Shown one piece after another: positions 963-9,793 of a stretch of 31,484 bases of DNA. Each line of letters begins with the position of its first letter. Within the stretch, counting starts at the first letter, position 1. Below the pieces are notes generated by a model. That model was not told the origin of the DNA, searched no databases, and was given only the letters and a program-made list of their open reading frames with translations. The stretch comes from a virus. Taxonomy: Duplodnaviria; Heunggongvirae; Uroviricota; Caudoviricetes. The stretch lies in the IMG/VR virus record IMGVR_UViG_3300029517_000011, one strand, 5' to 3'. Both the position numbers and the translations under genes were made by a program.

Positions 963-1467
963 ACAGGCTCGTGAGGCTCTGGATGCCTGGATATGTCGAC
1001 CAGGAATGACACAGGAGCAGGCGACGATATTAATCACTGAAGCATTCTGGGCTTTGAAAGAGCGCCCGAACATCGATGTTCAGCGTGTCACAGATGAAGG
1101 TGGCGCGGTTGATCAGCGAGCGCTTGGTGTTAATCGAGTGAAGATATTCGAACGCTGGAAGGCTATCGACACCAGGGATAAGCGTGAAAAGTTCACGGCG
1201 CTAGTGCCTGCGATTATGGAGGCTATCCGGATTAGTGATTTCAGGTTGTATCGTGAAATTACTGACGGAAAAAGCATCACGTGCATGATCGCCGGGTTAA
1301 ACAAAGAATATGGCGATGTGGTGGAGTCCGGACTGCTTTTTGCTGATCCTGCCGTAGTGGATCGTGAAACTGACGAACTTATAGAAAAAGCAATTGCTTT
1401 CAAGCTTGCGTATCGACAGCAATACCAACAAAAAGCTGGATGGAATTATGAGCCTTCTTTTTGCTGA
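946..1467 (+). CDS. Hypothetical early-region protein (173 aa), in the position of cII/YdaT-type regulators
   Basis: ORF track 946-1467; its start overlaps the end of the cro-like gene and its end overlaps the replication gene start. Function is inferred from position only. Confidence 0.6.
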   Translation: MKITPEQAREALDAWICRPGMTQEQATILITEAFWALKERPNIDVQRVTDEGGAVDQRALGVNRVKIFERWKAIDTRDKREKFTALVPAIMEAIRISDFRLYREITDGKSITCMIAGLNKEYGDVVESGLLFADPAVVDRETDELIEKAIAFKLAYRQQYQQKAGWNYEPSFC

Positions 1468-2413
1468 ACGCCCACTGGTTATAAACACGCAGCTGGCAAT
1501 GAAAATTGGCTTAAACGAAGCCATTGTTTTGCAACAACTGCACTACTGGTTGAGAGATACCAACTCCGGCATGGAATGTGATGGTGTTCGCTGGATTTAT
1601 AACACAACGGAACAATGGCTGGAACAGTTCCCATTCTGGTCAGAGTCAACGTTAAAGCGCGCGTTTGCAAGTCTGAAAACGCTGGGGCTTTTGCGTTGTG
1701 AAAAGCTCAATAAATCAAAGCGCGATATGACCAATTTCTACACGATCAACTATGGGAGCGAGCTTTTAGATGGTGGCAAATTGAGCGAATCCATCGGTTC
1801 AAAATGCGCCGCTCCATCAGGTCAAAATGACACGATGGAAGAGGTCAAAATGAAACGCTCCATTGGTTCAAAACGACCCAATGTCATCGGGGCAAAATGG
1901 CCTGATGATCTTACAGAGAATACAACAGAGATTACTACAGAGAATAAAAACACTTTTCGTCCGGAAGCTTCGCAACCGGACCCGCAGACGACTGAACAGG
2001 ATTCTTTAACCCGGAACTCCGACGCGGTTGTGTTTAGTGCGAAAAAACGCCAGTGGGGTAGCAGGGAGGATTTGGCGTGTGCGCAGTGGATCTGGGGGCG
2101 GATCGTGGGTCTCTACGAACAGGCAGCCAGTGATGATGGCGAGATCATGCGACCAAAAGAGCCTAACTGGACTGCCTGGGCCAATGACGTGCGCACAATG
2201 CGGATGCTGGATGGCAGAAGCCACAGACAAATTTGCGAAATGTTTGGTCGGGTTCAGCGAGATCCATTCTGGGTAAAAAACATCATGAGCCCGTCAAAGC
2301 TCCGCGAAAAATGGGACGAACTGGTCATCCGCCTGGGACGTTCACCTGTACAGCGTTGTGTTAATCATATTTCTGAACCGGATACAGAAATTCCGCCTGG
2401 TTTCAGAGGATAA
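1448..2413 (+). CDS. Phage replication initiation protein (O-like; iterons lie inside the gene)
   Basis: ORF track frame 1394-2413; I prefer ATG 1448 (MSLLFAERPLVINTQLAMKIGLNEAIVLQQLHYWL...), which gives an N-terminal HTH-like domain. Five 23-bp direct repeats sit mid-gene as in lambda O. The C-terminal half resembles primosomal/DnaT-like replication proteins from memory. Confidence 0.6.
   Translation: MSLLFAERPLVINTQLAMKIGLNEAIVLQQLHYWLRDTNSGMECDGVRWIYNTTEQWLEQFPFWSESTLKRAFASLKTLGLLRCEKLNKSKRDMTNFYTINYGSELLDGGKLSESIGSKCAAPSGQNDTMEEVKMKRSIGSKRPNVIGAKWPDDLTENTTEITTENKNTFRPEASQPDPQTTEQDSLTRNSDAVVFSAKKRQWGSREDLACAQWIWGRIVGLYEQAASDDGEIMRPKEPNWTAWANDVRTMRMLDGRSHRQICEMFGRVQRDPFWVKNIMSPSKLREKWDELVIRLGRSPVQRCVNHISEPDTEIPPGFRG
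1791..1950. repeat. Candidate origin of replication: five tandem 23-bp iterons (1791-1905) followed by an A-rich segment (1906-1950)
   Basis: Units start at 1791, 1814, 1837, 1860 and 1883, with consensus about CCATNGGTTCAAAATG. Exact 23-bp periodicity (TCAAAA at 1799, 1822, 1845, 1868, 1891). Followed by TACAGAGAATA-type A-rich repeats. Confidence 0.7.
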
Positions 2414-2453
2414 GTGTTGATTTCAGGTCATGAGGTAATTTTAAGGGGGACTT

Positions 2454-2876
2454 GTGGCAAAAGTTTTTACACAAGAAGAGCGGGAAAAAATTAAATGGCA
2501 GGTGGTGGAACTCGTGCGCCAGAGCGGCCGTGAGACGTTACGGCAACTGGAAGCTAAAACAGGTGCGACTAGATATCTGATGAGCGTTCTTGCCAGAGAG
2601 CTGGTAGCCAGTGGCGATGTATACAACTCCGGCTACGGGTTATTCCCCTCTGAACAGGCGCGTAAGGACTGGCAAAACGCCCGCAAAAAACTCTCGAGGG
2701 CAAAGGTGAAGAAACCTGCTGTGGTTGATCCGGACCTTATCTGGTCATCACCTGACGGAGAAATACGTCGCTACGACAGTCGCCTAAACATAATCTGTCG
2801 CGAGTGCCGGAAGAGCGAAGTTATGCAGCGCATACTGGCTTTCTATCAGGGTAATTTTCAGGACGTGGCGCAGTGA
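2454..2876 (+). CDS. Hypothetical protein (140 aa)
   Basis: GTG start at 2454 preceded by SD TAAGGGGGA. Stop overlaps the next gene's start (GTGA at 2873-2876), suggesting translational coupling. Confidence 0.6.
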   Translation: MAKVFTQEEREKIKWQVVELVRQSGRETLRQLEAKTGATRYLMSVLARELVASGDVYNSGYGLFPSEQARKDWQNARKKLSRAKVKKPAVVDPDLIWSSPDGEIRRYDSRLNIICRECRKSEVMQRILAFYQGNFQDVAQ

Positions 2877-3229
2877 GTGCACCGGCAACCATTCTTGATA
2901 TGTGCTGTGGCAGCCGCATGTTCTGGTTCGATAAGTCTGACAAACGGGCGATATTCAGCGATATCAGAAAAGAAGGATACACATTACGCAATGGGAGACG
3001 CTTGATTATCAGCCCTGACATTATCGCAGATTTTCGTGCATTATCATTTGCAGACGCATCTTTTTCGATGGTTGTATTAGACCCTCCGCATCTTGAGCGT
3101 GTTGGTGATAACGCCTGGATGGGAAAGAAATATGGACGGCTGAATAAAGATGCCTGGCGTGATGATTTGCGACAGAGATTTAAAGAAGCTTTTCGGGTGT
3201 TGAGGCCGCACGGCGTTCTGATTTTTTAA
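2873..3229 (+). CDS. SAM-dependent DNA methyltransferase-like protein, probably C-terminally truncated or interrupted by an in-frame TAA
   Basis: Motif I-like LDMCCGSRMF near the N-terminus and DPPH (motif IV-like of N6/N4 amino-methyltransferases) at about residue 70. ORF ends at TAA 3227-3229, but the same frame stays open for 29 more codons (WNETQIPVSQILALTDRKPVICQRTGKKR) to TAA 3317-3319. Confidence 0.5.
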   Translation: MSAPATILDMCCGSRMFWFDKSDKRAIFSDIRKEGYTLRNGRRLIISPDIIADFRALSFADASFSMVVLDPPHLERVGDNAWMGKKYGRLNKDAWRDDLRQRFKEAFRVLRPHGVLIF

Positions 3230-3491
3230 TGGAATGAAACGCAAATACCGGTAAGCCAGATTCTGGCACTGACAGATAGAAAGCCTGTTATCTGTCAACG
3301 AACAGGGAAAAAACGATAAAACCCACTGGATTATTTTTATGAAAGAGGCATCCAGTGAGTAGATTCGTAAGGTTACAGATACGTATATCTGAATAATTAA
3401 ATTCAGTTCTGTAAATAAAACTTAATCCTTAACCGGATGGATTTCTGCACCCTCAGAACATCAGGAGGCCGCCCGAAAGGGCGGTAGTGAA

Positions 3492-3602
3492 ATGCGAAAG
3501 TTCAAAATTATTATTGAAACGGGAATAGCTGGTGGAGATTTTGAGGATGTATTCGAAGTGGACGATGACGCAACACCTGATGAAATTCATGACGGAGCAT
3601 AA
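3492..3602 (+). CDS. Small acidic hypothetical protein (36 aa); frame remains open for 23 codons beyond the TAA
   Basis: ATG 3492 follows a GC hairpin (3468-3485, GAAA loop) and GGAGG at 3463-3467. Product MRKFKIIIETGIAGGDFEDVFEVDDDATPDEIHDGA. Below the size cut-off of the ORF track. Confidence 0.3.
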   Translation: MRKFKIIIETGIAGGDFEDVFEVDDDATPDEIHDGA

Positions 3603-3666
3603 GAAATTTTCTTTAACTACTGCAATTACTCATACCACGAAATAAAAGACGATGAGGAAGAACAAA

Positions 3667-3777
3667 GTGGCTGATTTTTGTTCAGCTAAATATAACATCA
3701 GTTTTGAAGAGCGGGATGAACTATTAATGGACTATGGTGAATTACGCGGTGGAAGTGCTGCTGATGTCGAATCCTAG
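3667..3777 (+). CDS. Small hypothetical protein (about 37 aa); same frame reopens after TAG 3775-3777 for 21 codons
   Basis: SD GAGGAAG at 3655-3661 then GTG 3667 (alternative ATG 3652). Acidic, protein-like product (...YNISFEERDELLMDYGELRGGSAADVES). Confidence 0.25.
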   Translation: MADFCSAKYNISFEERDELLMDYGELRGGSAADVES

Positions 3778-3839
3778 CGTGATGACTATGAAGCGGGAAA
3801 AACTCCGGTCGAAGCATATTGTGATGAGTGGGGCGATGA

Positions 3840-4094
3840 ATGAGCGAGATTAATTATCAGGAAGGGCATGAAACGGCGGGGCAAGCAAAACCAGTGGCAT
3901 GGCGATATCGCTACGTGAAAAAAGCGTTACGGACTTTCAGGGGAAGTAGTGGTCTGGTGACTGGAAATATGTACCGAAAAAAGAGGATTGTAACGACAGG
4001 CCGAACTATCAAATTCAGGCCTTATTCACTGCCTCACCAGTCCCGGTTACATCAGAAGAACTGGTTAAAGCTGTGCACTTTTATGAACAACTAA
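3840..4094 (+). pseudogene. Possible frameshifted or degraded small gene
   Basis: ORF-track ORF 3840-4094 starts plausibly (MSEINYQEGHETAGQ...), but its 3' half looks non-protein-like while the -1 frame reads a protein-like ...VPVTSEELVKAVHFYEQLKRENPPTSGN. Confidence 0.3.
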
Positions 4095-4380
4095 AACGCG
4101 AAAATCCACCAACATCCGGCAACTAGATTAATGGATTAACTATGTCGGTTAAACGACCAGCCAACTGAAAAAGCGGAAACCTGATTACAGGTTGCCAGAT
4201 AAGGCAATGAGCTACCTGGCGCGGAACGGACTGATAAGTATGGGGAATGTTTTACGATGAACCTTTAGACTAAAGAGTTTGTAACGCTATGTAAGTGATT
4301 TTTTCTGGTTTAGATATTTATATGTCCGGCCAAATTGAGGTGTGTTTAAATGTAATTGCACATTGATTGTAGGAGGAATA

Positions 4381-4560
4381 ATGAAAAACGCATTGCAGTT
4401 TTTGTTTGTTGCGTTCTGGTTGTTCGCATCATGTATGCCCATCATCTTCACAGCAAGGTATATGGAAAAAGTTGATGTTTTGATATTAATATTTGGATAT
4501 ATAAATGCCCTTTTTTTAGGGGTGTTCATGGCGGTCATGTGCATTGAATACTGGCGGTAA
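4381..4560 (+). CDS. Small hydrophobic membrane protein (59 aa, two predicted TM segments)
   Basis: ORF track frame 4342-4560; strong SD AGGAGG then ATG 4381 (MKNALQFLFVAFWLFASCMPIIFTARYMEKVDVLILIFGYINALFLGVFMAVMCIEYWR). AT-rich upstream region. Confidence 0.55.
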   Translation: MKNALQFLFVAFWLFASCMPIIFTARYMEKVDVLILIFGYINALFLGVFMAVMCIEYWR

Positions 4561-4708
4561 ATACAGCGAACTCCATTGGTTTAGTTGGATATTTACTGTG
4601 CTGGACAAAAACGGTTTGCGGGGAAATCTTAGTTAAGTAGAATGACTGCGGGTGCTTGAGGCTATCTGCCTCGGGCATGGACACCAACGGCAGATAGAGA
4701 AAAGCCCC

Positions 4709-6584
4709 AGTTAACATTACGCGTCCTGCAAGACGCTTAACATTAATCTGAGGCCAATTTCATGCTAGACACATGTAGGTTAGCCTCTTACGTGCCGAAA
4801 GGCACGGAGAAGCAGGCTATTGTTAACACCAAGCTGTAATGTCCCCTTTGAACCATTCTAAAATGTCCCCAGACAATTCTCTGGGGGATTTTTCATGACC
4901 AAAGAAACTGTTACGATGAGTCATAAGGAACTCCACCGACTTCAGATTATTCAGGAGTCAATTAATCGACATATTACTCAGGAACAAGCTGCGGCACGCA
5001 TTGGCATTTCTATTCGGCAGGTTAAACGTCTGGTGCAACGGTATAGAAATGAAGGGCCTTCTGGTCTGGTTTCCCACCGACGTGGAAAGCGTCCTAATAA
5101 TTCCTTTTCTACTGAATTCAGAGCAACAGTAATTTCACTCCTCAAAGGCCGTTACGCTGATTTTGGACCTACGTTTGCGTGCGAAAAATTGCGCGAGATA
5201 CACGGTTTATCTTTATCCGTTGAAACTCTCAGAAAGTGGATGATAGAAGAGGGGTTATGGCGTGAACGCCGTCGTAAAATTGCCCGTATATATCAACGCC
5301 GCATGCGACGACCATCTTACGGTGAACTGATCCAGATTGATGGCTCACCTCATGACTGGTTTGAAAATCGAGGCCCCAGATGTACACTGATCGTTTTCAT
5401 TGATGATGCCACCAGTGCGTTGATGGCGTTGCGTTTTGTGCCTGCTGAAACAACCCGGGCTTACATGGAAACCCTCCGGGGTTACCTTAATGATCATGGC
5501 GTACCGCTCGCTCTCTACTCTGATAGACACAGTATATTCAGGGTAAATAACCCAGAGCGGGAAGGTGAGCTGACCCAGTTCACTCGTGCGATAAAGACAC
5601 TGGGCATCGAGCCAATCCATGCCAACAGCCCGCAGGCAAAAGGGCGGGTAGAGCGCGCCAATCAGACACTACAGGACAGGCTGGTCAAAGAAATGCGGCT
5701 TCAGAATATCAGTGATATTGAAACAGCAAATGCATGGTTGCCGACCTTTATTGAAGCCTATAACAACCGGTTCGCTACGTCGCCTCGTACTACTGATAAT
5801 GCTCATCTTGATGTGCACCATTCTGAAGAGGAACTGGGTTATATCTTCAGCCTACAGGCGAAGCGCGTTCTGTCTAAAAATCTCACTTTCCAGTACAAAA
5901 GCAGTGCGTTTCAGGTACGCAGTGAGGGCCGGGGATATCGACTTAGGCATTCGGTTGTTACTGTATGCGAGAACTTTGACGGTGAAATTAACGTTCTGTA
6001 TGACGGGAAAGCGCTGGGCTGGGAAAAGTATGTTGATGGCCCGGAGCCTATACCACTGGATGATGAAAAGAGTGTCCATGAACGAGTGGATAATGCCCGT
6101 ATTGATTTACGCTCAAAATACTATGTTAAACCTAAAGCTGACCATCCCTGGCTTACGCGCCGAACGCAAAGTCATCAGCAAGTTAAGCCCCCGAAGTTAC
6201 CTAAAAAGAAGCCTGATCCCGATAAAAAAGATTGAAACCAAGATCGATTCGGTTGAGTGCATATCCATTCATAGGGTAGATTCTTAAGTCGCGTTTCTGG
6301 TGTTCATTTTCGGGTGGTTTGTTACTTGTTTTACCGGGGATATGCCAGAAACGCGCTGAGTCAGTCTGGGCGGTGCGCGTAATGAGGCGTTATGGTAAAT
6401 AGCCTATGCTAATGTCCGCTAAGAGCAAGAAGCGGAAGTTGGCAGTTTTGTGGACTGTCCCCACAAAAGTGACTACAGAAATAGTTGCAATTCATAATTG
6501 ATCATGGGTTGTCAGTTAAACTCGTGGCGATTTAAATAGACTAATTGGGAGTGCGTCCATTACTTATATCTTGTAATGTTAACT
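4709..6584 (+). mobile_element. Insertion sequence with a single rve-type DDE transposase; ends not resolved (4709 and 6584 are only a provisional 12-bp inverted match)
   Basis: Single transposase gene 4895-6235 with no second IS gene, interrupting the phage nin-like region. AGTTAACATTAC (4709-4720) is the reverse complement of 6573-6584. No convincing longer terminal inverted repeat found by eye. Confidence 0.3.
4895..6235 (+). CDS. IS transposase, HTH N-terminus plus rve integrase-core DDE domain (446 aa); IS481/ISNCY-like architecture
   Basis: ORF track 4895-6235. N-terminal HTH (ITQEQAAARIGISIRQVKRLV). Catalytic-core-like segments LIQIDGSPHDW, ALYSDRHSIF and ANSPQAKGRVERANQTL fit D, D, E spacing of retroviral-integrase-type transposases. 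SD GGGGGA sits inside a hairpin (4867-4886) before the ATG. Confidence 0.85.
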   Translation: MTKETVTMSHKELHRLQIIQESINRHITQEQAAARIGISIRQVKRLVQRYRNEGPSGLVSHRRGKRPNNSFSTEFRATVISLLKGRYADFGPTFACEKLREIHGLSLSVETLRKWMIEEGLWRERRRKIARIYQRRMRRPSYGELIQIDGSPHDWFENRGPRCTLIVFIDDATSALMALRFVPAETTRAYMETLRGYLNDHGVPLALYSDRHSIFRVNNPEREGELTQFTRAIKTLGIEPIHANSPQAKGRVERANQTLQDRLVKEMRLQNISDIETANAWLPTFIEAYNNRFATSPRTTDNAHLDVHHSEEELGYIFSLQAKRVLSKNLTFQYKSSAFQVRSEGRGYRLRHSVVTVCENFDGEINVLYDGKALGWEKYVDGPEPIPLDDEKSVHERVDNARIDLRSKYYVKPKADHPWLTRRTQSHQQVKPPKLPKKKPDPDKKD

Positions 6585-6630
6585 ATCAGAAATGATACAA
6601 AGATAATATGTCTTTAAAGAAAAGGCTGAT

Positions 6631-6657
6631 GGCGAAAAGTGGCCCGATGAGGGCCAC
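6631..6657 (-). terminator. Intrinsic terminator downstream of flxA
   Basis: On the minus strand: stem GTGGCCC / GGGCCAC with a 5-nt loop followed by a U-run (complement of GGCGAAAA at 6631-6638). Confidence 0.55.
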
Positions 6658-6671
6658 AATACGGCTGTCAC

Positions 6672-7004
6672 TTAGACGTAAATATCAATGGTGCCAGCGG
6701 TATTTGTATCGTCTTTTTTCTCTTCTTTTTTATCAGGCTGAACTGTCGCGTCTTCATTCTTTTTCTCTGCCTGCTGCCTTAACAACTGCTCCAGTTGAGC
6801 CCAGAGGCTTTCAATTTGCTTCTGTACCAATGCAGCCATTTCTTTTTTCTGCTGTGTCGTCATCCCCTCTTCCGATGAGATTTTCCCAAGCTTTTCAGTC
6901 AGCACCTGAATTTGTCTTGTGATTTTGGCTATTTCTGATGTTCCTTCCGGGGCGGAGTTGTTTGAAATAACGGTTGAGGTATTTCCCTGAATTGTGACAG
7001 ACAT
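6672..7004 (-). CDS. flxA: FlxA-like protein (110 aa)
   Basis: ORF track 6672-7004. N-terminus MSVTIQGNTSTVISNNSA and 110-aa length match my recollection of E. coli Qin FlxA. Preceded by SD AAAAGGAGAAA and a sigma-28 consensus promoter. Confidence 0.7.
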   Translation of the reverse strand: MSVTIQGNTSTVISNNSAPEGTSEIAKITRQIQVLTEKLGKISSEEGMTTQQKKEMAALVQKQIESLWAQLEQLLRQQAEKKNEDATVQPDKKEEKKDDTNTAGTIDIYV

Positions 7005-7027
7005 AGATTTCTCCTTTTAAAAAAGCA

Positions 7028-7054
7028 CTATCGGCATGAACAAAAAAATCTTTA
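7028..7054 (-). promoter_or_regulatory. Sigma-28 (FliA) type promoter for flxA: TAAAGATT-N11-GCCGATAG
   Basis: Minus-strand sequence TAAAGATTTTTTTGTTCATGCCGATAG matches the FliA consensus TAAAGTTT-N11-GCCGATAA at 7/8 and 7/8 positions with the canonical 11-nt spacer, about 25 nt upstream of the flxA ATG. Confidence 0.7.
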
Positions 7055-7206
7055 ATCGTATTTCTTGTGTCATTAATTGTTTGATGTTCAGATTGTTTTC
7101 CTCGCGGGCTGGCGCGCCTCAGAAAGTAAAGCTTGTTGACAGGGGTAAACGTTCGGCAATAATTTTCTGCCGCATGCGGGTGTTGCATAAAACGTGTTAC
7201 GTTCCT

Positions 7207-7512
7207 TTATCGACAGGTCAGGTCACCGCTCACCCGCCGACGAGAAAGCAACACTGACATGCTAAAGCAAAAAATAGATGAATAAGTTGAGTTGTGCATA
7301 TGTAGCCTGACCGTCACAAAGTATATGGTGTCTGTACCAGTAAGATGATGGCCGGACTCTTTAAAAACGAGCTGACCTGCACAATACAGGATGGACTTAG
7401 CAATGGCTGCTCCTGGCACAAAGCGGACAGTGATCACCGTTCTTACGACTACTTTCTGACTTCCTTCGTGACTTGCCCTAAGCATGTTGTAGTGCGATAC
7501 TTGTAATGACAT
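7207..7512 (-). CDS. Hypothetical 101-aa ORF (possibly YdfV-like by position); may be non-coding
   Basis: ORF track 7207-7512 between flxA and relB, same strand as flxA. Composition is not convincingly protein-like and it overlaps the relBE promoter/operator. Confidence 0.25.
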   Translation of the reverse strand: MSLQVSHYNMLRASHEGSQKVVVRTVITVRFVPGAAIAKSILYCAGQLVFKESGHHLTGTDTIYFVTVRLHMHNSTYSSIFCFSMSVLLSRRRVSGDLTCR

Positions 7513-7525
7513 TTGTAATTACAAG
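7473..7525 (+). promoter_or_regulatory. relBE promoter with operator palindrome (relO-like)
   Basis: TTGCCC (7473-7478), 17-bp spacer, GATACT (7496-7501), overlapped by inverted repeat CTTGTAAT-N10-ATTACAAG (7500-7525). SD AAGAGGTG precedes relB ATG 7537. Confidence 0.55.
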
Positions 7526-7536
7526 AGGTGTAAGAC

Positions 7537-7776
7537 ATGGGTAGCATTAACCTGCGTATTGACGATGAACTTAAAGCGCGTTCTTACGCCGCGCTTGAAA
7601 AAATGGGTGTAACTCCTTCTGAAGCGCTTCGTCTCATGCTCGAGTATATCGCTGACAATGAACGCTTGCCGTTCAAACAGACACTCCTGAGTGATGAAGA
7701 TGCTGAACTTGTGGAGATAGTGAAAGAACGGCTTCGTAATCCTAAGCCAGTACGTGTGACGCTGGATGAACTCTGA
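7537..7776 (+). CDS. relB: RelB antitoxin (79 aa)
   Basis: ORF track 7537-7776. MGSINLRIDDELKARSYA...KPVRVTLDEL matches E. coli RelB as I recall it. Stop overlaps the relE start (TGATG). Confidence 0.9.
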   Translation: MGSINLRIDDELKARSYAALEKMGVTPSEALRLMLEYIADNERLPFKQTLLSDEDAELVEIVKERLRNPKPVRVTLDEL

Positions 7777-8063
7777 TGGCGTATTTTCTGGATTTTGACG
7801 AGCGGGCACTAAAGGAATGGCGAAAGCTGGGCTCGACGGTACGTGAACAGTTGAAAAAGAAGCTGGTTGAAGTACTTGAGTCACCCCGGATTGAAGCAAA
7901 CAAGCTCCGTGGTATGCCTGATTGTTACAAGATTAAGCTCCGGTCTTCAGGCTATCGCCTTGTATACCAGGTTATAGACGAGAAAGTTGTCGTTTTCGTG
8001 ATTTCTGTTGGGAAAAGAGAACGCTCGGAAGTATATAGCGAGGCGGTCAAACGCATTCTCTGA
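7776..8063 (+). CDS. relE: RelE mRNA-interferase toxin (95 aa)
   Basis: ORF track 7776-8063. MAYFLDFDERALKEWRKLG...; RelE/ParE-family size and position immediately after relB. Confidence 0.9.
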   Translation: MAYFLDFDERALKEWRKLGSTVREQLKKKLVEVLESPRIEANKLRGMPDCYKIKLRSSGYRLVYQVIDEKVVVFVISVGKRERSEVYSEAVKRIL

Positions 8064-8134
8064 ACCAAAGCATGACATCTCTGTTTCGCACCGAAGGTGA
8101 CACTTCTGCTTTGCGTTGACAGGAGAAGCAGGCT

Positions 8135-8290
8135 ATGAAGCAGCAAAAGGCGATGTTAATCGCCCTGATCGTCATCTGTTTAACCGTCATAGTGACGGCA
8201 CTGGTAACGAGGAAAGACCTCTGCGAGGTACGAATCCGAACCGGCCAGACGGAGGTCGCTGTCTTCACAGCTTACGAACCTGAGGAGTAA
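8135..8290 (+). CDS. hokD: Hok-family small membrane toxin, HokD/RelF-like (51 aa)
   Basis: ATG 8135 to TAA 8288-8290, translated by hand: MKQQKAMLIALIVICLTVIVTALVTRKDLCEVRIRTGQTEVAVFTAYEPEE. Below the ORF-track size cut-off. Hok-family hydrophobic N-terminus with the conserved Cys. Confidence 0.85.
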   Translation: MKQQKAMLIALIVICLTVIVTALVTRKDLCEVRIRTGQTEVAVFTAYEPEE

Positions 8291-8358
8291 GAGACCAGGC
8301 GGGGGAGAAATCCCTCGCCACCTCTGATGTGTCAGGCATCCTCAACGCACCCGCACTT

Positions 8359-8385
8359 AACCCGCTTCGGCGGGTTTTGTTTTTT
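8359..8385 (+). terminator. Intrinsic terminator after relBE-hokD
   Basis: Stem AACCCGC / GCGGGTT with TTCG loop followed by TTGTTTTTT. Confidence 0.7.
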
Positions 8386-8457
8386 CCTGGCATTCTGGTT
8401 TACAATTCGCACGCCAGCCTGAACAACTGGCACCTGCTGCGCCAGCAGAGACAACCG

Positions 8458-8736
8458 ATGGCGCACGATACCAAATTACACAATTCTGATGATTCTGCCG
8501 TCTTTGCCAGCAGGCACGGGCGGCGTTCCCGCACTTTCAAATCTGACTGGTTCCAGCATGACCCATGCACTGAAGAACAGGCCGAGTGGCTAATTCAGTG
8601 CTACCGCAGACACGGATACGAGATTAAGAAAGCCCTCAGCCTCGATTATCGTCACTGGATAATCTCCGTCAGGCTTCCTTACTCTGAACGCCCACCGCGT
8701 CCGTCTCGCACATTCCAGCAGCGTATCTGGAGGTAA
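8458..8736 (+). CDS. Hypothetical protein (92 aa), Rem-like by synteny with Qin (relB-relE-hokD-rem)
   Basis: ORF track frame 8329-8736; I start it at ATG 8458 because the 5' extension overlaps the terminator at 8359-8385. Stop TAA 8734-8736 abuts the next gene's GTG. Confidence 0.5.
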   Translation: MAHDTKLHNSDDSAVFASRHGRRSRTFKSDWFQHDPCTEEQAEWLIQCYRRHGYEIKKALSLDYRHWIISVRLPYSERPPRPSRTFQQRIWR

Positions 8737-8737
8737 C

Positions 8738-9793
8738 GTGCGGGTATTACTTCGACCTGTTCTGGTACCGGAACTCGGGCTGGTGGTCCTTAAGCCGGGC
8801 CGTGAATCCATGCAGGTATTTCATAATCCCCGGGTGCTGGTGGAGCCGGAACCGAAAAGCATGCGCGGTCTGCCGTCAGGAGCTGTTCCTGCCGTGCGCC
8901 AGCCGCTCGCGGAAGATAAATCATTACTGCCATTTTTCAGCGATGAGCGGGTGATTCGTGCTGCTGGCGGCGCTGGCGCATTGTCTGACTGGCTGTTACG
9001 CCATGTTAAATCCTGCCAGTGGCCTCATGGTGACTACCACCACAGTGAAACCGTCATACATCGTTACGGTACCGGCGCGATGGTATTGTGCTGGCACTGT
9101 GATAATCAGTTACGCGACCAGACTTCAGAATCACTCGGGCAACTTGCTCAACAAAACCTGACATCCTGGATGATTGACGTCATCCGCCACGCAATAAACG
9201 GTACACAGGAGCGGGAGTTATCGCTGGCTGAATTATCCTGGTGGGCGGTCTGCAATCAGGTAGCGGACGTATTGCCGGAGGCAGTATTACGTCGTTCTCT
9301 GGGATTGCGTGCGGAAAAAATCCGCTCGGTGTACCGCGAAAGCGACATCGTACCGGGAGAGCAGACCGCCACCAGCATACTGAAGCAGCGCACAAAAAAT
9401 CTTGCGCCGCTGCCTCACGCCCACCAGCAAAACCCGCCACAGGAAAAGACGGTGGTCAGCATTGCCGTTGATCCGGAGTCACCGGCTCAGTATCTCCAGC
9501 GCCAGAAACCACAACGGGAAGAGATGCCTGTATACACGCGCTGGGTAAAAACGCAGAAATGCATGACGTGCGGTAATCAGGCAGATGATCCGCATCACAT
9601 CATTGGTCATGGACTGGGAGGGATGGGAACAAAGGCTGATGATTTGTTTGTTATTCCGCTGTGCCGCAAATGTCATAACGAACTGCACGCCGGGGTAAAA
9701 GATTTTGAAGAAAAACACGGCAGCCAGCTGTTGTTGCTGATTCGTTTTTTAATGCACGCGAGAAATTCGGGCGTCCTGAAGTGGAAAGCATAA
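8738..9793 (+). CDS. DUF968-type protein (YdfU-like, 351 aa) with C-terminal Cys/His HNH-like motifs
   Basis: GTG 8738 preceded by GGAGG. C-terminus CMTCGNQADDPHHIIGH...CRKCHNELH resembles a zinc-finger/HNH-like motif. Size and position match Qin ydfU from memory. Confidence 0.65.
   Translation: MRVLLRPVLVPELGLVVLKPGRESMQVFHNPRVLVEPEPKSMRGLPSGAVPAVRQPLAEDKSLLPFFSDERVIRAAGGAGALSDWLLRHVKSCQWPHGDYHHSETVIHRYGTGAMVLCWHCDNQLRDQTSESLGQLAQQNLTSWMIDVIRHAINGTQERELSLAELSWWAVCNQVADVLPEAVLRRSLGLRAEKIRSVYRESDIVPGEQTATSILKQRTKNLAPLPHAHQQNPPQEKTVVSIAVDPESPAQYLQRQKPQREEMPVYTRWVKTQKCMTCGNQADDPHHIIGHGLGGMGTKADDLFVIPLCRKCHNELHAGVKDFEEKHGSQLLLLIRFLMHARNSGVLKWKA

Follow-up and report, generated by a model that had tools for sequence, protein, structure and literature searches.

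The locus described here lies in the nin-like region of a lambdoid (Qin-like) prophage, within a stretch of 31,484 nucleotides (hereafter the window, denoting the whole stretch of DNA analysed). It is characterized by the leader and the toxin ORF of a hok/sok locus, between which lie a transposase gene, the passenger gene flxA and the relBE toxin-antitoxin genes. From left to right the features are:

4650-4821, plus strand: hok leader/sok antitoxin region, severed from the toxin ORF (Rfam RF01794, sok, 104.1 bits)
4806-4820, no strand: left copy of the target-site duplication, GGAGAAGCAGGCTAT, made up of the hokD Shine-Dalgarno sequence and the AT of the start codon
4821-8121, plus strand: the mobile unit in full, 3301 bp from IRL to IRR, with a 15-bp direct repeat on both flanks
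4821-4848, plus strand: inverted repeat IRL, TGTTAACACCAAGCTGTAATGTCCCCTT, matching the reverse complement of 8094-8121 at 21 of 28 positions
4895-6235, plus strand: intact 446-aa transposase gene (tnp), IS1202 family (ISNCY), DDE type
6414-6437, no strand: palindrome HP1 (GTCCGCT-N10-AGCGGAA), where the conserved left module ends
6441-7408, no strand: variable cargo segment, the sole segment that is swapped in other copies
6672-7004, minus strand: flxA, passenger gene (Pfam FlxA PF14282, 53.8 bits), inside the inverted repeats
7409-8121, plus strand: conserved right module of about 713 bp (relB promoter region, relB, relE and IRR)
7537-7776, plus strand: relB antitoxin gene (NCBIfam NF008412 equivalog, 133 bits, cut-off 96), product 100% identical to K-12 RelB
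7776-8063, plus strand: relE toxin gene (TIGR02385, 54.7 bits, cut-off 27.9), product 100% identical to K-12 RelE
8094-8121, minus strand: inverted repeat IRR, the 21/28 partner of IRL, reading ...GGTGACACTTCTGCTTTGCGTTGACA on the plus strand
8122-8136, no strand: second copy of the duplicated target, GGAGAAGCAGGCTAT, matching the left copy perfectly over 15 bp in direct orientation
8135-8290, plus strand: hokD (relF) toxin ORF, product 100% identical to K-12 HokD, now downstream of relE

The initial annotation had recognized a 446-aa transposase with an HTH and a D, D, E integrase core, and a mobile element carrying this rve-type enzyme in the nin-like region; both assignments are borne out. 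The ORF is uninterrupted, and its product shows the Pfam domains HTH_28, HTH_29, HTH_32 and HTH_23 at the N terminus, followed by an rve_3 integrase core, and matches the NCBIfam ISNCY_2 equivalog with 465.5 bits (cut-off 250). The residues D149, D210 and E253 are invariant among homologues down to 36% identity. Its length of 446 aa, N-terminal HTH and DDE/RNase H core agree with the transposases of the IS1202 family (394-507 aa); read from the eighth codon, which is also a methionine, the ORF gives 439 aa. Plasmids of Phytobacter, Enterobacter and Klebsiella encode the protein with 100% identity, and PGAP labels it 'IS1202-like element ISEsa1 family'.

The transposase gene is enclosed by IRL and IRR: a pair of imperfect 28-bp repeats, 3.3 kb apart, whose tips are TGT and ACA. 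The inner motif AATGTCCCC occurs twice at the left end (4838-4846 and 4862-4870), and matching ATGTC motifs are found at the right end. This is the form of the ends typical of the IS1202 family, namely imperfect repeats of 24-29 bp with 5'-TGT...ACA-3' tips and a second, internal copy of a motif. More than 20 independent loci share an identical IRL, and the repeat is still recognizable in relatives down to 44-62% transposase identity; at the right end the IRR core TTTGCGTTGACA is kept in relatives from Hahella, Chromatiales, Chlamydiae, Castellaniella and metagenomes. The inverted repeats are directly abutted by the two copies of GGAGAAGCAGGCTAT, a 15-mer that is found exactly twice in the window, with none expected from shuffled sequences. 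The order inside the unit is IRL (TGTTAAC...), tnp, flxA, 'ydfV', relB, relE and IRR (...GTTGACA), and the transposase ORF, both inverted repeats and both copies of the duplication are all intact.

Comparison with loci that lack the element establishes what was interrupted. An Rfam scan of 4000-8800 returned nothing but sok above threshold (RF01794, gathering score 59; the next candidate, isrK-like at 8299-8380, reached only 27 bits against 50). The sok match spans the full model (positions 1-157) and stops exactly at the insertion point, which lies in hokD between the Shine-Dalgarno sequence with the AT of the start codon and the remainder of the gene. In the window the HokD ORF, whose product matches NCBIfam Hok family models with scores below their curated cut-offs, is 3.3 kb away from the hok leader; only in empty sites are they joined. 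Two such sites (L001 and L207), in which the leader runs straight into hokD, read ...GGCAAGGAGAAGCAGGCTATGAAGCAG... and hold a single copy of the 15-mer. With the element removed, the window aligns across the junction with element-free prophages (98.2% over 440 nt for L207), and in many E. coli genomes a 105-bp two-piece match corresponds exactly to flank, one repeat and flank. These sites are devoid of the whole 3.3 kb, not merely of 1.6 kb.

This comparison with uninterrupted prophage sites, which the initial annotation had proposed, set new boundaries at 4821-8121; boundaries other than its own were what it had said would tell against it. It had envisaged an IS of about 1.9 kb between a small membrane-protein gene and flxA, with ends in a 12-bp inverted match, AGTTAACATTAC, at 4709-4720 and 6573-6584. 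The match is real and perfect, and the 12-mer occurs nowhere else in the window. Its left member, however, lies within the sok/hok-leader match (the leader, 4709-4820 included, is present in element-free prophages), copies in other contexts share sequence from 4821 on only, its right member falls in the cargo segment missing from other copies, and no direct repeat flanks 4709 and 6584. An element with these ends is refuted by the empty sites, and its probability is practically nil. The remark that long terminal inverted repeats are lacking holds within about 1.9 kb but not for the 3301-bp unit, which ends in the 21/28 pair and has flxA inside. Among 40 inverted-repeat pairs collected within 4400-6800 none is terminal; the 12-bp pair (I16) was dropped from consideration after the empty-site comparison. 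For a suggested role of the element in shaping degraded ORFs to its left no link was found: the left region is collinear with element-free prophages, and the pseudogenes that a near-identical genome has in this region are over 500 bp away from the element's left end.

Hence, 4821-8121 is very probably one 3301-bp transposon of the IS1202 family, of ISEsa1 type, that moved by joining of its TGT...ACA ends and inserted at the hokD initiation region. Passengers inside one pair of repeats, one duplication around the whole unit and occurrence at independent sites are the marks of a unit transposon, and a simple IS (about 1.3-1.75 kb, encoding a transposase alone) does not describe it. Since the 3301 bp include flxA, 'ydfV', relB and relE inside the inverted repeats, the mobile unit is more aptly termed a transporter IS or a unit transposon than a simple IS.

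Copies of this unit are built from two conserved modules separated by exchangeable cargo. The left module comprises IRL and the transposase gene, about 1.6 kb (from 4821 to about 6430-6451; 1606-1631 bp among copies), and shares 99.7% identity with its counterpart on a Phytobacter plasmid. Near its end lies the palindrome HP1, which three further copies (L007, L019 and L026) have at the equivalent place in the element; its partner, the palindrome HP2, stands ahead of the right module. Between them, the window copy carries flxA and most of 'ydfV'; other copies instead carry ncr/chr genes (L007), cation-efflux and cytochrome b561 genes (L019), an ars operon (L020) and others. The right module is 96-99% identical in L007, L009, L011, L019 and L026, independent of cargo or site; 784 plasmid records, covering more than 20 genera, contain it. 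Its genes form a canonical type II RelBE pair: an antitoxin gene of the RelB/DinJ kind followed by an overlapping toxin gene of the RelE/StbE kind, with the overlap at 7776. IRR lies just downstream of relE, and a toxin-antitoxin module is always next to IRR in the copies compared. In one of these (L025) the right-end genes gave no NCBIfam match, and Pfam identifies TacA.

The module structure bears on the published description of ISEsa1 from Cronobacter sakazakii, an ISNCY/IS1202-group element listed with 1609 bp, a 439-aa transposase and a 15/22 inverted repeat, for which neither a duplication nor a target was found (Harmer, Pong & Hall 2023, PMC10132070). Going by length, PGAP label and ORF size (439/446 aa), ISfinder's 1609-bp ISEsa1 appears to be the left module. 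The likeness extends to the PGAP name, the left-module length of 1606-1631 bp and the Met8 start that yields 439 aa; what sets the window unit apart is the published description, since the unit measures 3301 bp, ends past relBE, is flanked by a 15-bp duplication and sits in hok. One could accordingly hold that the element is the 1.6-kb ISEsa1 only (about 4821-6430), inserted with no duplication, and that flxA, ydfV and relBE are ordinary prophage neighbours. In keeping with this, the ISfinder entry cited in PMC10132070 has 1609 bp and lacks a duplication, homology among cargo variants stops at 6426-6451, and the right arm of HP1, which ends ...GCGGAAG here, ends ...GCGGACA in other copies, loosely like the IRR tip. 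The published 15/22 repeat was, however, not reproduced at about 6430 in the window copy, nor did 6425-6475 contain an IRR-like match of 15/30 or better. Of 38 enterobacterial-type copies whose sequence extends far enough, not one shows a partner repeat at 1.5-1.75 kb; in 24 the partner stands at 3.3-12.8 kb, past the toxin-antitoxin module. The 15-16-bp repeats always enclose relBE or a TacAT module, non-hok sites included, and the empty sites, as noted above, lack the full unit. The 1.6-kb reading is thereby largely refuted, and we regard it as very improbable; the degenerate ...GCGGACA within HP1 could conceivably be a relic of an alternative right end.

The full unit is observed at independent sites. 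With other cargo (nickel/chromate, arsenic, cation efflux) the tnp...relBE-IRR unit measures 3.3-12.8 kb. An identical 3301-bp unit lies in the hok locus of an Enterobacter plasmid (L006) with its own 15-bp repeat, GGAGAAGAAGGCCAT, and a 12,843-bp unit (L007) has its own duplication, GGAGAAGTCAGCTAT. These two and four more (L009, L012, L015 and L026) are insertions in different hok loci, each with its own duplication; a further four (L011, L019, L020 and L078) are at non-hok sites with unrelated flanks, again with duplications of their own. The duplication is 14-16 bp long in the tnp...relBE-IRR insertions, differing by site, and 14-17 bp in 25 related insertions. That the flanking duplication differs from site to site contradicts the notion that the 15-mers are part of the element.

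A published account has relBE integrating into hokD from plasmids, with the vehicle not named (PMC6379469). It could be read to mean that relBE entered hokD separately as a minimal plasmid cassette, with the IS beside it by coincidence, and spread among hok loci by homologous recombination, for some of which the hok leaders and ORFs are homologous enough. Against this, the left and right modules travel together with site-specific repeats, also at the four non-hok sites; the duplicated 15-mers vary from one hok locus to another and agree with the local sequence at either side; and the insertion point moves by 1-3 bp between hok loci. We consider a separate arrival of relBE extremely improbable.

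The initiation regions of hok genes are hit repeatedly at one position: at least 15 distinct hok-leader targets have been struck there. At non-hok sites, 60 of 115 unique flanks have CAA immediately beyond the duplication, the background being about 2 per position. One hok insertion (L022), seen from its left end only, runs the other way round and has no CAA motif. The enrichment in hok could come in part from selection (harmless insertions being carried by plasmids and prophages) or from homologous exchange, as opposed to biochemical targeting. A search for dif-like sites in 4000-9000 (up to 9 mismatches to E. coli dif), prompted by the targeting of dif by other IS1202 members, found none.

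Simple relatives of the element also make duplications. These include a 1449-bp element present in at least 10 copies in Hahella and elements of 1330-1475 bp in metagenomes, all with the same end motifs; their duplications are 15-17 bp long and adjoin a TG(G/T)CAA motif, which lies 15-16 bp from the point of insertion. ISCARN112 and such unnamed simple ISs (Hahella sp. SMD15-11, metagenomes) resemble the window unit in their ends (TGTTAGC...AATGTCCCC and ...TTGACA) and in 44-63% transposase identity; they differ from it in being 1.33-1.48 kb long, in lacking cargo and a toxin-antitoxin module and in occupying many sites. ISCARN112 is placed in one subgroup with ISEsa1 and is reported to be without duplication, in contrast to the 15-17 bp seen here in simple relatives; the duplication subgroups recognized in the IS1202 family are those of 3-5 bp, of 16-28 bp and of none for ISEsa1/ISCARN112 (PMC10132070). 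With 15 bp, the window unit comes close to the long-duplication class.

Other known systems share some of these properties. The transporter ISs of the IS1202 family, tISKpn21, tISRel10 and tISKpn65, also hold a passenger ORF inside their inverted repeats. They belong, however, to the subgroup with 3-5-bp duplications and lie beside dif-like sites, unlike the window unit with its 15-bp duplication, hok initiation targets, fixed toxin-antitoxin end module and exchangeable multi-gene cargo. Oriented insertion at a set distance from a recognized sequence is a likeness to the ISAjo2-type ISs, which hunt pdif/dif sites, and to Tn7. A further likeness is that PMC10132070 describes these with TGT...ACA tips and an extra internal transposase-binding repeat near each end. 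Its target is TG(G/T)CAA-N15-16, hok especially, rather than XerC/D sites (ISAjo2-type) or attTn7 (Tn7), and it is devoid of Tn7-like accessory targeting proteins. IS150 and IS186, like the window unit, are mobile elements that inactivate hok near, not within, the toxin ORF, but they are of unrelated IS families, have no cargo and no reported shared insertion point. In work of Pedersen and Gerdes from 1999, insertions of these two elements are said to adjoin the chromosomal hok loci of K-12.

The right part of the unit is also present in E. coli K-12, whose Qin prophage relBE-hokD region is 99.8% identical to window positions 6051-8384, with RelB, RelE, HokD, FlxA and YdfV 100% identical between the two. 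K-12 has lost the equivalent of 1226-6050, so that only a truncated copy of the element remains; because the hok leader, IRL and 1156 bp of tnp are missing there, the transposon origin is invisible in K-12. Judged by this comparison, the window is likely to preserve the intact ancestral arrangement of the K-12 relBE-hokD (relBEF) locus, and insertion of the transposon into hokD explains the relB-relE-hokD operon of K-12. Co-transcription of relBE and hokD in K-12 is cited in PMC5120126.

That K-12 and many other strains hold a truncated copy only could suggest that the transposase is domesticated or a dead remnant and the structure a fossil without present mobility, and in one near-identical genome the gene is annotated by PGAP as a pseudogene. 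That call, however, coincides with the ydfW ORF, annotated on its own and made up of the final 49 codons of the tnp frame; in the window the ORF, the inverted repeats and the duplication copies are undamaged. We therefore find loss of mobility in the window copy very improbable. A recent spread of the element is indicated by the 100% identity of the transposase between genera and by the 99.7% identity of the left module to the Phytobacter plasmid copy. No fewer than 760 of the 5426 complete E. coli genomes contain the element.

Taken as a mechanism, the transposase would join the TGT...ACA ends to a target cut with a 15-16-nt stagger, giving the 15-bp duplication GGAGAAGCAGGCTAT; the target was the translation-initiation region of the prophage hokD, and the transposase itself may read the TG(G/T)CAA motif. 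The insertion parted the hok promoter/mok/sok leader (4650-4820) from the hokD ORF (8135-8290), and hokD, keeping the duplicated Shine-Dalgarno sequence, was set directly downstream of relE, giving relB-relE-hokD as in K-12. Transcription of relBE could then cross IRR into hokD, in line with the co-transcription reported for K-12, and relBE may act as an addiction module that stabilizes the transposon and its replicon. More broadly, ISEsa1-type elements are probably toxin-antitoxin-stabilized cargo transposons (tnp, cargo bracketed by two palindromes, relBE or tacAT, and IRR) that home to hok initiation regions on plasmids and prophages by a TG(G/T)CAA-N15-16 rule; K-12 relBE and its relB-relE-hokD operon would be a fossil of one such insertion, and the subgroup's 'no duplication, no target' an artefact of a mis-set right end.

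The literature searched for combinations of ISEsa1, hok/hokD, relBE, ncr and ISNCY yielded no paper describing the tnp-cargo-relBE-IRR unit; the boundaries, cargo architecture and hok targeting appear undescribed there, the kind of element being known. The present analysis corrects the anatomy of a widespread element, which annotation now splits into 'ISEsa1 transposase', 'YdfW', 'FlxA', 'YdfV', 'RelB' and 'RelE', and supplies both a duplication and a preferred target for the only IS1202 subgroup with neither in Harmer, Pong & Hall (2023). It offers a concrete origin for the much-studied toxin-antitoxin system relBE of K-12 and for the odd relB-relE-hokD operon, whose hokD has so far been described only as rearranged or as 'relBE integrated from plasmids'. 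The ISEsa1-type chassis moves nickel/chromate, arsenic and cation-efflux genes among conjugative plasmids of clinical Enterobacterales. Finally, the insertion disables one plasmid addiction system, hok/sok, and brings another, relBE: this makes it a testable case of competition between such systems.

The window represents a lambdoid, Qin-like prophage of E. coli; the mobile element in its hokD locus is real and belongs to a known family, IS1202 (ISEsa1 type). The window contains just two copies of the 15-bp sequence GGAGAAGCAGGCTAT (4806-4820 and 8122-8136; chance expectation: none), and directly inside them lie terminal inverted repeats (IRL and IRR) that match at 21 of 28 positions, have the tips TGT/ACA and are both accompanied by a second ATGTC-type motif ~24 nt further inward. 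Because the 15-bp repeats adjoin the inverted repeats, the unit is 4821-8121, a transposon of 3301 bp.

Features of the element and its target in the window
4821-4848: IRL, TGTTAACACCAAGCTGTAATGTCCCCTT, directly inside the left 15-bp repeat
4895-6235, + strand: transposase gene (tnp), uninterrupted ORF of 446 aa
6672-7004, - strand: flxA
7207-7512, - strand: 'ydfV'
7537-7776, + strand: relB
7776-8063, + strand: relE
8094-8121: IRR, reverse complement TGTCAACGCAAAGCAGAAGTGTCACCTT, directly inside the right 15-bp repeat
8135-8290, + strand: hokD

The products of flxA, 'ydfV', relB, relE and hokD are 100% identical to those of K-12, and by megablast many E. coli chromosomes have the region at 99.9% identity. 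The initial annotation's description of a 446-aa transposase with an HTH and an integrase core with D, D and E holds: the ORF is intact, Pfam finds rve_3 and four HTH models that overlap one another, the NCBIfam equivalog 'ISNCY family transposase' (cut-off 250) gives 465 bits, and PGAP's name for the product is 'IS1202-like element ISEsa1 family transposase'. Alignment with seven homologues (identity down to 36%) shows D149 (IQIDGS), D210 (YSDRHS) and E253 (KGRVERANQTLQD) to be invariant. The K-12 protein YdfW (49 aa, WP_011443592.1) is the last 49 codons of this frame (6086-6235, + strand); PGAP, in a near-identical genome, treats ydfW as a separate gene and the transposase as a pseudogene truncated at its C terminus, the ORF being intact in the window.

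The same annotation gave as best candidate for the ends a 12-bp inverted match at 4709-4720 and 6573-6584. That match exists, but it does not delimit the element. The Rfam sok model (RF01794) covers 4650-4821 at 104 bits over its full length; therefore, the left arm is part of the hok/sok leader and not of an IS. Element-free prophages follow the window from 4400 to 4820 only and then pass straight into the hokD start codon, and the sequence that element copies in other contexts share with the window begins at 4821. The right arm falls within a segment absent from other element copies. Comparison with uninterrupted sites, which had been proposed, places the left end at 4821, not 4709: two element-free loci, L001 (strain CH10508) and L207 (strain ampC_0069), read ...GCCGAAAGGCAAGGAGAAGCAGGCTATGAAGCAGCAA... 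with a single copy of the 15-mer. The window minus the element and one repeat copy aligns over the junction as a single segment with both (88% identity, 2.6 kb, for L001; 98.2%, 440 nt, for L207). When the element with 60-bp flanks was searched against 5426 E. coli genomes, many gave a two-piece match of exactly 105 bp (45 + 15 + 45), and 760 contained 80% or more of the element, junctions included. We hold the ends, the duplication, the unit and the empty site with high confidence.

Upstream of the hok leader is a small hydrophobic ORF of 72 aa (4342-4560, + strand) that neither Pfam nor NCBIfam recognises; element-free prophages also have it, at least over 4400-4560 (its 3' part), since they match the window from 4400 onward. 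A frameshifted SAM-dependent methyltransferase gene and a frameshifted hypothetical gene (2919-3363 and 3841-4260; PGAP marks transferred from L003, 99.9% identical) are the degraded ORFs that the element was suggested to have shaped; they lie >500 bp from IRL and we see no link. Directly downstream of hokD, at the expected position of the hok mRNA 3' region, a weak isrK-like Rfam match (8299-8380, + strand; 27 bits against a gathering score of 50) is probably due to chance.

The whole unit has inserted independently elsewhere. On a plasmid of Enterobacter roggenkampii (L006) the 3301-bp unit as in the window, with flanks GGAGAAGAAGGCCAT, occupies a different hok locus; on a plasmid of Phytobacter (L007) a third hok locus contains a version of 12,843 bp, with flanks GGAGAAGTCAGCTAT, whose ends are those of the window element and which has ncrABCY, chrBA and further genes between tnp and relBE. 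A species-wide scan and a metagenome scan with the IRL pattern gave further copies, including 4.5-9.1-kb versions in Kluyvera, Citrobacter, Leclercia, Scandinavium and others, both in hok loci (L009, L012, L015, L017, L023, L026, L041, L094, L096, L101-L103, L160) and at non-hok sites (L011, L019, L020, L025, L039, L078); every such insertion is flanked by its own 14-16-bp repeat. Downstream sequence of at least 1750 bp was available for 38 enterobacterial-type copies: a repeat partner lies at 3.3-12.8 kb in 24 of them and at 1.5-1.75 kb in none. One copy (L022, 9767-9927) adjoins a hok ORF in the opposite orientation, its IRL beside the reverse complement of GGAGAAGAAGGCCAT and its far end outside the 11 kb examined. 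A 3274-bp variant (27 bp shorter), its transposase labelled just 'ISNCY family' by PGAP, has the hokD site and duplication of the window in metagenome contigs L123 and L200 and in E. coli matches H83-H85 and H142-H144.

Pairwise comparison of copies divides the element into three parts.

Modules, palindromes and alternative toxin-antitoxin pairs
4821 to ~6430-6451 (1606-1631 bp): left module, conserved
~6441-7408 in the window: middle, variable
7409-8121: right module, conserved (relB promoter region, relB, relE, IRR)
6414-6437 (HP1) and ~7403-7426: palindromes in the window
L019, element positions 1594-1617 and 3884-3907: palindromes
L025, 16952-17697, - strand: TacA + GNAT (TacT-like) pair, Scandinavium, next to IRR
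L039, element positions 3349-3840: TacA + GNAT (TacT-like) pair, Scandinavium, next to IRR

Wherever transposase identity is at least 81% and the right end is visible, at hok and non-hok sites alike, relBE at 93-100% identity adjoins IRR; two Scandinavium elements have in its place a TacA antitoxin (PF08681, 92 bits) and a GNAT toxin. Thus, a toxin-antitoxin pair beside IRR is a constant of the design, while its family varies; the functional roles of relBE are ones we infer. The cargo of other copies includes cation-efflux and cytochrome b561 genes, an ars operon with a ClC channel, TauE/LysR, and nested IS110- and IS30-family insertions. The 'ydfV' ORF spans the border at ~7409 and has no match in the Pfam scan. 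Its conservation in other elements is limited to the first 33-39 codons (the relB promoter region), and 'ydfV' probably does not represent a true gene. Two 24-bp palindromes with like arms (GTCCGCT-N10-AGCGGAC), resembling the subterminal AATGTCCCC repeat, flank the variable cargo of all enterobacterial elements, those of Scandinavium among them; L009 and L011 have IS110-family insertions in the loop of one or the other, and L011 an additional IS30 insertion in HP1. They may act as internal sites for the transposase or as sites of cargo exchange; alternatively, they may be what is left of an earlier right end.

The IS1202 family was defined by Harmer, Pong & Hall 2023 (PMC10132070), who list ISEsa1 as 1609 bp with repeats 15/22 and 439 aa, multiple examples showing no detectable duplication, and group it with ISCARN112 in a third subgroup whose target was not found. 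The listed length is that of the conserved left module, and 439 aa is the window ORF read from Met8; the simplest reading would be that the listed right end is the divergence point of cargo variants and not the transposon end. Integration of relBE into hokD from plasmids has been reported, the vehicle unnamed (Ramisetty and co-workers, PMC6379469); a 2026 preprint surveying Hok has 0 occurrences of ISEsa1, and in its examined passages no such element appears. The literature searched, incomplete in coverage so that an earlier description elsewhere is possible, holds no description of the 3301-bp tnp-cargo-relBE unit. Its boundaries, size, cargo and target differ both from the ~1.9-kb IS initially suggested and from the published account of this nearest named relative.

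Other relatives are simple insertion sequences: Hahella sp. SMD15-11 has at least 10 copies of a 1449-bp IS (62% transposase identity) with the end motifs of the window element and 15-16-bp duplications at unrelated sites, and metagenome elements of 1330-1475 bp have 15-17-bp duplications. Across 115 unique non-hok left flanks (L027-L206), a CAA terminates 29 times at -17 and 20 times at -16, other positions having ~2, and the preceding bases favour T-G-(G/T). The resulting target motif T-G-(G/T)-C-A-A, directly 5' of the 15-16-bp duplication, is family-wide (60 of the 115 flanks) and confined to the IRL side; no matching motif was seen on the IRR side. The hok initiation regions carry this motif (...AAGGCAA|GGAGAAG...ATG), and hok insertions keep a fixed distance from it, not from the ATG: in a hokE-like gene (L015) the insertion is 11 nt inside the ORF, yet 12 nt after GGCAAGGA. 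Head-to-tail tandems sharing a single duplication copy occur in one Leclercia hok site (L023, 6654-11554 and 11565 onward; two different family members, transposase identities 91% and 79%) and in Hahella (L028, 9929-12843; two copies), which fits re-use of a preferred site. Of the distinct insertion sites in enterobacterial copies, about half are hok loci; this excess over the bare motif may reflect either extra recognition or selection, and we have moderate confidence in hok homing as a transposase property.

The insertion parts the hokD ORF from the hok promoter, the mok start and sok. As the duplicated 15 bp comprise the Shine-Dalgarno sequence plus the AT of the start codon, this ORF retains a ribosome-binding site; hokD now starts 71 nt after relE. 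This is the relB-relE-hokD arrangement of K-12 'relBEF', reported to be co-transcribed (Gotfredsen & Gerdes 1998, cited in PMC5120126). K-12 matches the window at 824-1225 and then at 6051-8384 (BW2952, L002: 2602-3002 and 3001-5335, a 2-nt overlap at the scar); the break at 1226-6050 therefore means that K-12 Qin has a 4.8-kb deletion relative to the window. This deletion took the nin-region genes, the hok leader/sok, IRL and 1156 bp of tnp, and its scar fuses ydfX' to the 3' end of tnp: hence, the transposon origin of the locus is invisible in K-12, whereas the window preserves it.
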